NCBI GenBank assembly: GCA_011364925.1
Contig: RDOA01000009.1
Location: forward strand, 32,001 to 96,000
DNA: 64,000 bases
Direction: 5' to 3'
DNA from: Promethearchaeota archaeon
Lineage (GTDB): Archaea; Asgardarchaeota; Lokiarchaeia; Sigyniarchaeales; SOKP01
Under the pieces are notes generated by a model that saw nothing but the letters and a program-made list of their open reading frames with translations, was not told the DNA's origin and did not search any database. Position numbers and translations under genes: made by a program. This document shows, piece after piece, positions 41,322-58,109 of this stretch (its first letter is position 1; every line of letters begins with the position of its first letter).

Positions 41322-42629
41322 TTAAAGTTTGATGGAGAATGGGAATTCTTTAGCTTCTTCTATTTTGTTTTGGTCAGGATCGACAAATTTTATGTATACT
41401 TTAATTATGTAATCTCCTGCTTCTAATGGTTTAAGGTTTATTTCCCATTTCAAATCTTCATTAGTTCTTAATGAATATATCTGTTTTTTAGTGGTACCTC
41501 TCATAACTTTTAAATTCTCGGGGAATTCGACATCAATATCTACATCTAACGCTTCCCCTTCGCTTTGGTTTTCAATTAGAATCTCCAAAGGAAATGTTTG
41601 ATCAATAAGAGGAGGTCTTAAATTTTTAATAGAAGCTAATAGTGTAGCAGGAGGGGAAACTAACTGAGGTACTACTGATTGAGTTTCATATGTAAAGATG
41701 AGGTTTTTGTCTAAATCGCAAGTAAACAAAATAGGTCCAATGAACGGATTTTCAATTTGGAAATGAGGTTTAATTATAAATTCTAAACTGGAAACATTTC
41801 CCACATCAAGAGTTAAAGGAACTTGTGGTTTTTTACTCGTAGTCAAGTTATCTGAAAGGTTAACTGTTATTTTATTTATATTAAACTCGCTATATTCAAA
41901 CTGATAATAAGGATCATTTAGGATCGTTGATAAGCCTGTGATATCAAAATTGAGAGTAAGGTTTATTAGTTCATTAGTGTTATATTGGTCTTTATCTAGT
42001 TTAAATGTTGAGTTAGTTAACAGTTGAACATTTATTAGGAGTAGCACATATTTTAATAGTTTTACTTCAGCGTCCCTAAATTTGTAATGGGTCATATTCT
42101 CTTTAATTTTATCAATGTATTTGATTTGTTTATCCCGAAGAGAAAGGGTAATTTCAGAAACTAGCTGTATTAATGAGCTTTCCTTGAAAAAATCTTTATC
42201 GACCTTTCTTTGAATCTTCTTTATATTCTCTAAACCTTCCTCAGGATTACCCTTAAGAAATGAACATAAATAGGATAATACTGAAAAGAGAATGCTATTA
42301 TAACTTCGTTCTCCTTCATTTTTTAGCTTCGGAACATACTCTAACACTTCTTTATAAACTTCGTTAGCTGCTAAAAATTCATCTGCATAAATACAAGCTT
42401 CCCCAGATTGCCTAAATAGCTCAATAGTAGTATCATATCTCTCCAATTCCATAAACATTTTAGCAGCATTGATAAAACTGTTCCTAGCCTCTTCAAATTC
42501 CTCTAATTTCAGCAGAATATTTCCAGCTAAGTGATAATTTTTACCAGCTTTTTTAAATTGTCTTGCTTTGAACAGTTGGTCAGCTTTTAGTATTTGCTTT
42601 TCAGCTTGTTCTCTTTGGTCTTTTCCCAT
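41322..42629 (-). CDS. TPR/SNAP-like solenoid plus C-terminal Ig-like beta-sandwich protein
   Basis: KAGKNYHLAGNILLKLEEFEEARNSFINAA helical repeats; IENQSEGEALDV...PLEAGDYIIKV. Confidence 0.6.
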   Translation of the reverse strand: MGKDQREQAEKQILKADQLFKARQFKKAGKNYHLAGNILLKLEEFEEARNSFINAAKMFMELERYDTTIELFRQSGEACIYADEFLAANEVYKEVLEYVPKLKNEGERSYNSILFSVLSYLCSFLKGNPEEGLENIKKIQRKVDKDFFKESSLIQLVSEITLSLRDKQIKYIDKIKENMTHYKFRDAEVKLLKYVLLLINVQLLTNSTFKLDKDQYNTNELINLTLNFDITGLSTILNDPYYQFEYSEFNINKITVNLSDNLTTSKKPQVPLTLDVGNVSSLEFIIKPHFQIENPFIGPILFTCDLDKNLIFTYETQSVVPQLVSPPATLLASIKNLRPPLIDQTFPLEILIENQSEGEALDVDIDVEFPENLKVMRGTTKKQIYSLRTNEDLKWEINLKPLEAGDYIIKVYIKFVDPDQNKIEEAKEFPFSIKL

Positions 42630-42738: not shown

Positions 42739-43395
42739 TTATAAAGCTAAAACCATTAGTACAAATGCTATTAAAATGAGTATTCCTCCAAATCCAGCTA
42801 ATCCAATAAAACCTACCGCAAATGGCGATATCCAAGTAAAGATAACAAAACCTATTAATAGGACTACCCACCATGAGTAATTAATTACCTTCAAATCTAC
42901 GAAATCAAATAAAACGATAATCAAAAGTATTAAAAGAATTAATCCAATAACGCCATTAACGATAAGAAGAGCATTTCCAGAGAGGAAAAGTAAAAAGCAC
43001 TCATAAACCGAAAAGCCAATACCGATTAGTAGTACTATTTTTGAAGCTTTATATGGTTTCTTTTGCATAAATAATTCAACAAATGCCGCTATTAACAACA
43101 ATATTCCAGCAAAATAACCACCACCAAAGAAGTAGGCAAATATAATCAATATAGCTCCAAAGATAAGGATTAGCCACCATTGATATGGAATTTTTAAAGG
43201 CCCAAAACTAATCAATTCTAATGTAAGAAAGATTAAGAACGCAATGACTAAGCAAAGTATCCCCCAGAGTATATTAAGACCGAAACCACCTAGTGGCGCA
43301 TAGAAATATGTTATAGCCATAAAAATTGTATAAAGCATCCCTATAAACACAAGCAATTTTGGAGCTGAAATTTTTTCTGTTGACAATTCATTCAT
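42739..43395 (-). CDS. Integral membrane protein with internal duplication
   Basis: About 8 TM segments; two halves each with KIPYQWW / KVINYSWW. Confidence 0.7.
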   Translation of the reverse strand: MNELSTEKISAPKLLVFIGMLYTIFMAITYFYAPLGGFGLNILWGILCLVIAFLIFLTLELISFGPLKIPYQWWLILIFGAILIIFAYFFGGGYFAGILLLIAAFVELFMQKKPYKASKIVLLIGIGFSVYECFLLFLSGNALLIVNGVIGLILLILLIIVLFDFVDLKVINYSWWVVLLIGFVIFTWISPFAVGFIGLAGFGGILILIAFVLMVLAL

Positions 43396-43560
43396 TTTTT
43401 TTCACTTTTTTTAAATTCTTCTAAATTTTAATTTAGAATTAGAAATTAAATAGGATCGTGAATTTAAAAAGATTTACAGATTACTTAAGATATTATTAAT
43501 AGGAGTTCAAAACTCTTATTAAAAAATAAAATTTTAAAAATTAGAGATTAAAATTTTTTT

Positions 43561-43627
43561 CCGAAACCATCACATAATGGGTTGTCTTCTCGCGACTATT
43601 ATTTCTTCGCGAAAATCATTCTTTCGG
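43561..43627 (-). promoter_or_regulatory. Eukaryote-like SECIS element
   Basis: Minus strand reads CCGAAA-GA-ATGA-TTTTCGCGA-AGAAATAATAG-TCGCGAGAA-GA-...-TTTCGG: helix I 6 bp, AUGA/GA core, helix II 9 bp, A-rich apical loop; lies directly 3' of two UGA-containing genes. Confidence 0.85.
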
Positions 43628-44104
43628 TTTAATTTTTTTTGCTTTTTCATCAGAATCTTTTTTCTCATTTATTAAGGATTCTTTAATGGGATTGGTGCCT
43701 AGATTTTCTATTAATTCAGTAACCCTGGTAACTTCTTCTTGAAATCTCTGGCCCTCAGCAGCACTACAGTTAAACATTTGGATTCTTTCAGGAGCTACTC
43801 CGGCAGTTTTTAAAATTTCTCGAGTGTATTCAACATTTTTTGCTGCTACTAAATTACCAGTTTCATAATCGCATTCTCCTTCGTATCATCCTGCAACGAC
43901 TACTCCATCTGCGCCCTTTCCAATCGCCCTCATCATTAAACTGGGGGTAACCCTCCCAGTACAGTTAATTCGCACAGGTCTAATAGACGCAGGATATTGA
44001 GCGCGTATTGTTCCAGCCATATCCCCAGCACCATAACCTCATTTCCAACACATAAAAGCTATTATCTTTACCTGGTCTTTTGTTTTTGCTACTATAATTT
44101 TCAC
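43616..44104 (-). CDS. mvhD: MvhD/VhuD/FlpD [2Fe-2S] subunit, selenoprotein with 2 Sec (absent from the ORF track)
   Basis: FMCWK-U-GYGAGD (TGA 44041-44039), RINCTGRV, GADGVVVAG-U-YEGECDYETGN (TGA 43888-43886), PERI...SAAEG; start is GTG 44104 or ATA 44095. Confidence 0.92.
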
Positions 44105-44108
44105 CTCT

Positions 44109-46085
44109 CTATATCTCTTCCAATATCGCGTCTATCTGTTTTTCGTATTGAGGTTCACGATAATATCTTAAAGTAATTGCTTCTGAGGGGCAATTAGCCA
44201 AACAAGCACCACAACCTCTACAAAGGATATCGTTAACTTCTGCGCCATCCGATTCGACAGTAATCGCACCATATGGGCAGTTGAGCTGACACAATCCACA
44301 CTTTGCGCATCTTTCGTTATCAACAGTTGCACGAATTAGGAGAATCCTATATTTATCCTTTGTCATTAACCTTGCCAAAGACGACGCAGCGGCTCTTCCT
44401 TGCGCTATTGACTCTGAAATTGATTTTGGTCCTTGAGATACACCAGCTAGCACAATTCCAGGGATTTTTGTATCGATTGGATTCAATCGCGAATGATATT
44501 CCTTGAAAAATCCATCATGACTTTTCTCTAGTTTCAGAATATTGGACAAACCCTCAATCCCTTTAGCGGGTACCATAGCGCTAGATAAAACTACCAAATC
44601 AAATTCAAATTCTTTTAATCCCGTAGTACCTACGGTGTTTTGTAATCTTACTTTAAGGTTATGGGTTTCGGGGTCTTCATAAATTCTGGATACATTAGTT
44701 CGTATGTATTTTATTCCCTCTTTTCTAGATGCTGTAAAATATTCCTCGTAATCTTTCCCCGCAGCTCTTATATCCATGTAGGCTACGGAAACATCAATAT
44801 CGGGAGAGTGTTGTTTAATGAGCTTTGTATTCTTTACTGAGATCATACAACACACTCCAGCACTACAGTAAGTTTGCCTGGTTAAATCTCTTGATCCTAC
44901 ACATTGAATAAATAGAACGCTTTTAGGCTCTTTTCCATCAGAAGGTCGCTTTAGGTGTCCTATTGTAGGTCCATTAGGTGCTAATATTCTCTCCAGTTTT
45001 AACTGTGTTATAACATTAGGGTAAACATTGTAACCTAAATAACCTGTCTCTGGTTCGTATTCATCCCATCCTGTTGCAACTACTATAGAACCAACCTCAA
45101 TTTCTAAGATTTCATCTTTTTGGTCAAAATCTATCGCGTCTACTTCGCAAGCTTTTTCACATAATCCACATTTGATACACTTGGTCATGTCGATTTGAGC
45201 TATCATTGGAACTGCTTGTGCAAATGAAGCATATATAGCTTTTCTGGGATTCAAACCTTCGTTAAATTCATTGTATCCATAAGCTGGGCAGACTTCCCAA
45301 CACGCTCCACAGCCATTGCAGTCATTGTTAACATATCTTGCTTTTTTTCTGATTTTAACCTTAAAATTCCCAACAAATCCAGTTACTTCTTCAACTTCAC
45401 TATAGGTATGCAGATTCAATCCAGGAGTTCTAGCAGTTTGGAGCATAACCGGACCGAGAATTCATATACTGCAATCGTCTGTTGGGAATGTACGATCTAA
45501 CATAGCCATCTTTCCGCCAATCGTGGGTTTTTTCTCTACTAAATGTACCTCAAAACCTTCTTCTGCTAAATCTATTCCTGCAGATAATCCTGCGACTCCC
45601 CCACCAATAATTAGAGCCTTTTTTGTTATATCTACTTCTTTGATTAAGATTTTCTCTAAAGTAGCAGCTCGAGCTACTCCGGCACGGATAGCGTCTTCTG
45701 CCGTTTTTTGTGCTCCAGGTTTATCATTTCTGTGGACAAAACTCGAATGCTCGCGGATATTCACGAATTCTAAGTATGACGGATCTAAATTCATCGACTC
45801 TAGCACGCTTTTAAATACTGGTTCGTGAGTTTTTGGAGTGCATGATGCCATTAGTAATCGATTTGCATTAAATTCGATCATCTTTTCTTTTATAAACTCA
45901 GCACCAGACTGTGTTCATAGAGAAATATAATCTATCGCTTCTACAACATTAGGCAGTTTTTTGGCATATTCTGATAATACTTTTGTATCTATGATTTCAG
46001 CGATGTTAAGTCCTCACTGGCAAATAGTAACTAAGATTCTGATGTCATCACTTTCAGTCATAACTTCCTCTTTAGTTTCTACCAT
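44109..46085 (-). CDS. hdrA: Heterodisulfide reductase subunit A, selenoprotein with 3 Sec (658 aa)
   Basis: One frame from ATG 46085 with TGA at 46016-46014 (ICQ-U-GLNI), 45917-45915 (YISL-U-TQSG) and 45464-45462 (DDCSI-U-ILGP), all at conserved HdrA Cys sites; joins track ORFs 45462..45881 and 44109..45446. Confidence 0.93.
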
Positions 46086-46291
46086 TGCATGTCCTTCCTT
46101 TCTAATTTTTTAAGTTCCTCCTAAATATTCAAATCTAATTATTACAGTTCTAAATGATTATTTCTAATTTAAAATAACTGATTAAAAAAATAACTTTAAA
46201 ACAATCTTTTTTTATATAAGTTTTATAATTAATTGAATTAAAAATATTCGTTAATCGTTTATAATCGAATTATCACGGTTATTGATATAAA

Positions 46292-46717
46292 ATGATATTA
46301 ACTTTTTTCCAGATGGGAAATTTTAAAATAGACGAATATCTCCCTATCATAATGATTGCTGCATTTGCTGTAGGAGATATATTATTGCTTAAGCTTGGGT
46401 TAGTAATAACTAAAGCGCAGAAAAGAAAACGCATGAAATGGGTTGCGGGAAGTTTTGCAATTCAATTTGGAGTAGTTTTTGCTATAAGTTCTCCTTTGTT
46501 TTTACTTGGCATTATAGGTGCTTTCAAAGGGGGGCCTCCTCCTGTAGGGTTAGCTTCTATCGTTTTCATTTCAGCTTTTATTGATCTTAACATAATTAAC
46601 ATTTTACATCAGATTGGATTAAAACGCTCACTAGTAGTGGTGATATTTACATTTGCTCCAATATTTCTGATGATGGTAGTTTTTGGGATGTATGTATCAA
46701 GCTTTTTTCATTATTAA
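46292..46717 (+). CDS. Hypothetical membrane protein
   Basis: About 4 hydrophobic helices. Confidence 0.65.
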   Translation: MILTFFQMGNFKIDEYLPIIMIAAFAVGDILLLKLGLVITKAQKRKRMKWVAGSFAIQFGVVFAISSPLFLLGIIGAFKGGPPPVGLASIVFISAFIDLNIINILHQIGLKRSLVVVIFTFAPIFLMMVVFGMYVSSFFHY

Positions 46718-57905: not shown

Positions 57906-58109
57906 CTATTTCTTCGAATCTGAAAGTTTTTTGTCAATATAGTCCAATAAAATCAAATCTTCAGGCTTTAGCTCGGTTTTTTCTAAATCATTCGCTATCT
58001 CATTTAATATATTTTTCTTTTTGGAACGCTTTTTCATCCTTAAGATTATTTTATTCTTTAAATTCTCTCTTCTCTTCTTTAATTCTTTTTTATCTGCCAA
58101 AATCTTCAC
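57906..58109 (-). CDS. Small basic hypothetical protein
   Basis: 67-aa Lys-rich ORF in an intergenic gap. Confidence 0.4.
   Translation of the reverse strand: MKILADKKELKKRRENLKNKIILRMKKRSKKKNILNEIANDLEKTELKPEDLILLDYIDKKLSDSKK

Follow-up and report, generated by a model that had tools for sequence, protein, structure and literature searches.

The closest described relatives of the element analysed here are the lokiSECIS elements, which always consist of an AUGA, a 9-bp stem, an 11-nt loop whose first bases are adenines and whose last base is an ultraconserved G, and then a GA (Mariotti et al. 2016, PMC4989117). The same study reported that HdrA of Lokiarchaeota contains several selenocysteine (Sec) codons and is always encoded directly upstream of VhuD, and that one lokiSECIS located after VhuD is common to HdrA and VhuD, serving up to six UGAs over ~2 kb. 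An RNAz analysis found no separate element for hdrA (PMC4989117). UGA stops near the SECIS were explained to escape recoding through a minimal-distance requirement, HdrA was found to always end with UAA or UAG, and the AUGA was described as also serving as a stop codon, with VhuU.1 as the named example (PMC4989117). No SBP2 is known in these archaea (PMC4989117). The same arrangement was described by Huang et al. (2024, PMC11227280), in whose work the elements are named type I eSECIS-like elements of Asgard archaea. LokiSECIS elements are known from bioinformatics alone, and one lokiarchaeal SECIS was non-functional in Methanococcus maripaludis (Peiter et al. 2025, PMC11881835).

Here, we analysed such an element in a 64-kb stretch of a Promethearchaeota archaeon genome (positions 32,001 to 96,000 of contig RDOA01000009.1; hereafter the window). 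The element is very probably a canonical SECIS of the Lokiarchaeia type (eukaryote-like, type I), located at the 3′ end of the bicistronic mRNA of the selenoprotein genes hdrA and vhuD, in which the location of the vhuD stop codon inside the SECIS core reflects no dedicated design. The SECIS common to both genes, the use of the AUGA as a stop codon and the main inference of a preliminary description of this locus are already published and are, therefore, rediscoveries. As one more instance of a published arrangement, the locus carries little weight alone.

Both ORFs of the locus are located on the minus strand and are visible only if TGA is read as Sec. Read in this way, hdrA (heterodisulfide reductase subunit A; 44109..46085) encodes 658 amino acids, and vhuD, also termed mvhD (hydrogenase delta subunit, FlpD family; 43616..44104), encodes 162 amino acids. 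The hdrA product matches the Pfam Fer4 (4Fe-4S) and FAD/NAD-binding domains, and the vhuD product matches PF02662 (methyl-viologen-reducing hydrogenase delta subunit, FlpD) with an E-value of 1.7e-42 and a domain end at residue 136. Three in-frame UGAs are present in hdrA (codons 24, 57 and 208, at 46016-46014, 45917-45915 and 45464-45462, respectively) and two in vhuD (codons 22 and 73, at 44041-44039 and 43888-43886, respectively). In at least 13 paralogous hdrA-vhuD pairs of the same genome, the positions aligned with these five hold either Cys or UGA. According to the ORF list, hdrA ends with a UAG at 44111-44109. The stop codon of vhuD, a UGA at 43618-43616, is the first in-frame stop past the two internal UGAs and, as had been proposed, is identical to the UGA of the AUGA core. 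The five Sec codons are located 269, 422, 1845, 2298 and 2397 nt 5′ of the AUGA, the last of these distances matching the approximately 2.4 kb previously given for the first Sec codon of hdrA.

The two genes are nearly abutting, as had also been described, with the earliest possible vhuD start, a GUG at 44104, located 4 nt past the hdrA UAG. An AUA at 44095-44093 is the more likely start, judged by the orthologues, which place AUG there. In the orthologue junctions (L012-L040), the region that corresponds to 44093-44104 on the minus strand of the window shows a Shine-Dalgarno-like AGAGGUGA after the hdrA stop and a start codon at a fixed spacing beyond it. This start codon is AUG in most orthologues and otherwise GUG, UUG, AUA (five, including this window) or AUU (three). 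The vhuD start thus seems tolerant of near-cognate codons, perhaps because of termination-reinitiation coupling. From the spacing of the two genes, we infer that hdrA and vhuD are co-transcribed into one bicistronic mRNA, on which a single SECIS would serve both cistrons. A U-rich tract with runs of T4, T5, T4 and T6 (43521..43553, minus strand) that starts 8 nt past the SECIS is probably an archaeal transcription termination region, and the next minus-strand ORF downstream of vhuD starts only at 43395. Farther along the same strand, 41322-42629 encodes a 435-aa protein whose N-terminus matches the eukaryotic SNAP (soluble NSF attachment protein)/TPR family with an E-value of 4.4e-6, barely past the Pfam cut-off.

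The complete lokiSECIS spans 43561..43627 on the minus strand and, according to its minimum free energy (MFE) fold and to covariance models (CMs), is a three-way junction built from helix I, a K-turn-like core, a helix II capped by the apical loop, and a mini-hairpin on the 3′ side. In agreement with the preliminary description, CCGAAA (43627-43622), which forms the 5′ strand of helix I, encodes a Pro-Lys of the VhuD tail; it pairs with UUUCGG at 43566-43561. Its sequence is kept in 29 orthologues, and other but complementary sequences are found there in paralogous SECISes. Helix I leads into a 4-nt loop, the last two bases of which open the AUGA core (43619-43616). Across 39 elements, the T, G and A of this core do not vary. 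The 9-nt 5′ strand of helix II (43615-43607) pairs with 43595-43587 to form 9 bp including one G-U, and the A-rich apical loop between them (43606-43596, 11 nt) begins with AGAAA and ends with AG. The GA that follows on the 3′ strand (43586-43585; G in at least 90% and A in 100% of the 39 elements) would partner the GA of the AUGA as tandem sheared G.A pairs. Four linker bases separate it from the mini-hairpin (43580-43567; 4-5 bp with a loop of 4-6 nt), which in turn borders the 3′ strand of helix I. The unconstrained MFE structure is exactly this three-way fold, with −18.2 kcal/mol and z = −2.87 relative to dinucleotide shuffles. All parts of the eukaryote-like SECIS that had been outlined at 43561-43627 were thus recovered, the mini-hairpin in the 3′ internal loop included.

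The element is supported by covariation. When 39 cores were aligned, compensatory (double) changes were seen in each of the nine pairs of helix II, and 90.4% of the helix II cells are paired compared with 40-52% in slid-partner controls. The same element is present at 29 of 29 orthologous vhuD loci from related genomes, so that the proposed hairpin proved both conserved and covarying when orthologous loci were compared. Helix I is 69% paired in the MAFFT alignment, in which its 5′ strand is one column off register in approximately half of the rows; this value is an underestimate, and we relied on individual folds instead.

We built a core CM from 39 related elements and ran it with filters off on both strands of the window. 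The model returned 56.7 bits at this site (E ~1e-10) and 16.5 bits for the runner-up in the 64 kb, and a second CM returned 88.9 bits for the complete element 43561..43627. The runner-up, at 57956-57996, is an A-rich coding-like stretch and was rejected as a SECIS. The search for further elements with a SECIS model, which had been suggested as a check, therefore yielded none besides this one in the window. The Rfam SECIS families gave no match at the gathering threshold in the window and none at E-values up to 10 on 43480-43700.

Compared with the published lokiSECIS elements, the element shows the same placement of AUGA and GA, the same 9-bp stem and the same 11-nt loop with an A-rich start and a final G, and the gene at whose 3′ end it lies carries in-frame UGAs at aligned Cys positions. 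The HdrA-VhuD pair with its very short gap, the single shared element after VhuD, the UAA or UAG stop of HdrA and the VhuD stops that include UGA near the SECIS are likewise as published. The lokiSECIS papers name VhuU.1 for the AUGA used as stop, and here it is VhuD; nothing essential differs. With form 1 of the eukaryotic SECIS (RF00031), the element shares the AUGA...GA core (a presumed K-turn with tandem G.A pairs), the unpaired apical adenines, the 3′ location and the action at a distance on several UGAs. However, the RF00031 model does not match it, its stem is shorter, it overlaps a coding region, and it carries a hairpin on the 3′ side of the internal loop. The VhuD SECIS of Methanococcales and Methanopyrus (GAA_A type, with an extra stem and an AUGA) is similar with regard to the gene family, the two Sec codons in VhuD, the single 3′ element and the AUGA. 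Unlike in this euryarchaeal type, the GAA_A bulge with its G-C clamps is absent here, and methanogen hdrA has been described as once having had its own SECIS.

A stop in the core that is under selection as a device would be expected to be conserved, and we compared the stop positions of vhuD. Among 30 orthologues, the core UGA is the stop in eight (this locus and 7 of the 29 others), a UAG at −5 in ten and a UAA at −13 to −17 in nine, and the remaining three use a UGA at −4, a UAG at −21 and a UAA at −30, respectively. The vhuD stop is therefore always located 0-30 nt 5′ of the core, i.e., inside or just before the element, with the consequence that every terminating ribosome melts at least helix I. 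What separates the stop states are single-base changes, either indels or substitutions, which fall in the loop that precedes the AUGA and in the coding tail rich in A and Lys; one changed base in this loop suffices to get from a UAG(−5) stop to a core-UGA stop. In the orthologues that use another stop, the core UGA is spread about evenly over all three frames, without preference for the vhuD frame. The core UGA is also the stop of a second vhuD (on contig C5) and of a vhuU (on C67) in the same genome. Judged from these sequences, a stop in the core is a drifting state, one of several that are interchangeable, and has no dedicated regulatory design.

The hdrA stop lies at a distance of ~490 nt from the SECIS. 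In 27 of 27 orthologues it is UAA or UAG, and in all four Sec-type pairs of the genome it is UAG. Overall, UGA is the hdrA stop in none of 31 Sec-type genes compared with 2 of 10 Cys-type hdrA paralogues that lack a SECIS. That the stop of hdrA is never UGA, whereas that of vhuD may be, fits the published model, according to which distant UGAs in both cistrons respond to the SECIS and a UGA that a ribosome reaches only by unwinding the SECIS does not. The drift of the stop position and the avoidance of UGA in hdrA (0/31) thus lend quantitative support to this model of an element that acts at a distance and is blind at close range.

According to the mechanism that we propose, the folded SECIS, probably together with a K-turn-binding factor and the archaeal SelB/EFsec, would bring Sec-tRNA(Sec) to the UGAs located 269-2397 nt upstream. 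By the time the final UGA occupies the A site, the entry channel of the ribosome would already have opened helix I along with the 5′ strand of helix II; as a result, no SECIS would be available in cis, and a release factor would terminate translation. The SECIS would refold once the ribosome has left. The different stop states would arise as indels and substitutions accumulate in the Lys-rich tail of VhuD, which is poorly constrained, and selection on the SECIS would keep the core UGA fixed, so that it provides a free, unrecodable stop whenever the frame meets it.

The preliminary description had instead considered the stop in the SECIS core as a selected regulatory device, in which termination unfolds the SECIS and thereby enforces the stop or feeds back on upstream Sec insertion. 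This locus, 7 of 29 orthologues and the C5 vhuD and C67 vhuU do stop at the core UGA, and terminating ribosomes must indeed melt the SECIS, at least in helix I, as had been expected, yet they do so whichever stop an orthologue uses; the core position adds nothing specific. Because 22 of the 30 orthologues stop 4-30 nt farther upstream at UAG or UAA (in one case at the UGA at −4), the core UGA shows no frame preference, and a single-base difference separates the UAG(−5) state from the core-UGA state, we consider such a device improbable. An enforcing role is also unneeded, as the published explanation, by which a UGA too near the SECIS escapes recoding, suffices. Read-through of the core UGA, by Sec insertion or otherwise, would extend VhuD by 25 residues. 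The frame is open as had been reported, but the extension was previously given as approximately 22 amino acids and instead comprises the UGA residue plus 24 amino acids up to a TAA at 43543-43541. We regard read-through as the least probable of the alternatives and scarcely credible, because the codons of the extension would span the SECIS stem as well as the U-rich terminator region and because the extension is not conserved: in orthologues with the core-UGA stop, the next stop follows after 9, 33, 42, 63 or 75 nt. Moreover, most orthologues end before the core with UAA or UAG, and the Pfam FlpD domain already ends at residue 136.

A different objection concerns the reach of the element, as hdrA might possess its own cryptic recoding element in the coding region or 5′ UTR and leave the downstream SECIS to vhuD alone. 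A scan of the operon with a relaxed AUGA/GUGA-stem-GA pattern returned only two weak 7-bp matches, both of which are located within hdrA (45160-45124 and 45115-45060), the folds of some coding windows have z close to −3, and an hdrA-like gene without a vhuD partner on contig C98 has its own SECIS directly past its stop. However, the core CM with filters off gave nothing above 9 bits in and upstream of hdrA (44109-46400), the euryarchaeal GAA_A SECIS pattern had no match in the operon transcript, and the 60 nt past each Sec codon folded no better than shuffles (z −0.9 to +0.7), leaving the three hdrA UGAs without hairpins after them. The non-UGA stop in 31 of 31 Sec-type hdrA genes is expected if a distal SECIS acts on hdrA, and the published RNAz analysis agrees (PMC4989117). 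A separate hdrA element is therefore highly improbable, and the 3′ SECIS is, as had been suggested, the sole recognisable recoding element for the five UGAs in the two ORFs by CM, GAA_A pattern and hairpin scans.

The 3′ mini-hairpin is part of the MFE fold, and its pairs covary: in 38 elements, all four pairs are changed on both sides and 91.7% of the cells are paired, in an alignment that was fitted to the structure, so that the count is biased towards it. Hairpins of unrelated sequence are found at the same place in the SECISes of vhuU, the UU family (see below), hdrA-like and other genes. In these SECISes of unrelated genes of this genome, the hairpin begins 1-4 nt past the GA and abuts the 3′ strand of helix I. 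The three-way junction was recovered as the MFE structure in 7 of 10 elements compared with 7.6% of versions with shuffled flanks. In UU-family loci from other genomes, the hairpin is present in 12 of 13 SECISes, and helix I is weak there. The main texts and supplements of the SECIS papers PMC4989117 and PMC11227280 do not mention this hairpin.

In a k-junction, by definition, a helix is added on the non-bulged strand of a K-turn (PMC10573300). The described cases, in which a K-turn is extended to a three-way junction, as in the TPP riboswitch (PMC4005666, PMC10573300), resemble the lokiSECIS in that the non-bulged strand carries the third helix, inserted where the G.A pairs meet the C helix, which corresponds to helix I. 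The likeness is one of secondary-structure topology only. The 5′ loop before the GA has 4 nt here compared with the standard 3, and the hairpin follows 1-4 linker bases. We tentatively suggest that the lokiSECIS might be a three-way, k-junction-like junction with a conserved and covarying 3′ hairpin rather than a plain hairpin of two helices as in eukaryotes, and that this architecture may be a recognition surface for an Asgard SECIS-binding factor. A three-way junction is a plausible refinement of the known lokiSECIS, and the conserved mini-hairpin could help in finding the Asgard protein that binds the SECIS.

We scanned the 3.9-Mb genome with a pairing-aware search for the geometry AUGA / 9 bp / 11 nt / GA. 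A looser initial pattern had been too unspecific, with 2619 matches versus ~1800 in the control, and was discarded. The scan identified approximately ten elements with an A-rich loop ending in G; the genes that they follow include three vhuD genes, a vhuU and a Prx-like gene. An eleventh element with a 10-nt loop (C112:15063) follows the fourth Sec-type vhuD and falls outside the fixed 9/11 geometry; the script that used this geometry also missed several orthologues with two mismatches. One SECIS thus follows vhuD in all four Sec-type hdrA-vhuD pairs of the genome.

The HdrA-like gene on contig C98 (C98:1-537, L009) is represented by its C-terminal part, cut by the contig start, and has its own lokiSECIS 23 nt past the stop with no vhuD in between; it does not follow the rule that the SECIS of VhuD always serves HdrA as well. 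At C24:22109-22143 (plus strand; L002:3110-3144), a well-formed lokiSECIS has no obvious selenoprotein ORF upstream. The nearest ORF encodes a zinc-ribbon-like peptide of ~40 aa (CxxC...CxxC) that ends with TGA-TAA 43 nt before the AUGA. In the orthologue of another genome (G049; L031:1397-1487, minus strand), the ancestral 5′ half of the element (ACCGAAUAG, then AUGA) is kept. A different SECIS, located 15 nt downstream of it, has a helix I, a stem and a mini-hairpin like those of a paralogous C38-type element. This looks like a SECIS replacement via recombination between paralogous loci.

The genome encodes SepSecS (377 bits) and a PSTK-like kinase (169 bits, under the curated cut-off). Two tandem selD genes with one in-frame TGA each are present at C94:2995-5290 (L043, L044), and the type I core model found no SECIS near them, consistent with the type II form published for SelD. 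No tRNA-Sec was detected in this metagenome-assembled genome (MAG) by Rfam RF01852 or by ARAGORN, which detected only 23 tRNAs overall, so that recovery of the tRNA set is poor. Two sub-threshold RF01852 matches were a tRNA-Gly and a tRNA-Leu and were rejected as tRNA-Sec. The MAG is rated 100% complete despite having only 23 tRNA genes in the ARAGORN prediction; tRNA genes are probably intron-containing or unassembled.

The same SECIS-first scan pointed to genes other than the established selenoprotein genes. Two loci (C32:33102-33560, plus strand, corresponding to L003:2603-3063, and C39:19301-19768, minus strand, corresponding to L006:396-929) belong to what we term the UU family, a candidate new Asgard di-Sec selenoprotein family. 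The proteins have ~150 aa and contain two adjacent in-frame UGAs (HAD-U-U-AD), beyond which conservation continues for ~40 aa. Exactly two TGAs are present in all 26 homologues, which originate from 23 genomes, no Cys form was found among these 26, and a lokiSECIS is located right after the gene in 12 of 12 loci. Public gene calls are cut at ~118 aa or read WW at this position, the WW being a putative code-4 translation of TGA TGA. No Pfam family matched. The AlphaFold model is weak (pLDDT 63), and Foldseek returned only non-significant ubiquitin-like/beta-grasp matches (E at least 0.008). The UU family is absent from the seven Asgard selenoprotein families of the 2024 (PMC11227280) and 2026 papers; a protein-motif search of the PMC11227280 supplements was uninformative, with the known VhuD and HdrA selenoprotein motifs absent there as well. 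The outcome of the SECIS-first scan suggests that methods based on Cys/Sec homology under-count Asgard selenoproteomes.

A further locus, C41:11754-11936 (minus strand; L007:355-552), encodes a predicted membrane protein of 66 aa with one in-frame UGA (GGGUPN) and has a lokiSECIS 9 nt past its stop. Two homologues from the same genus likewise contain one in-frame TGA, and the protein is a possible small selenoprotein.
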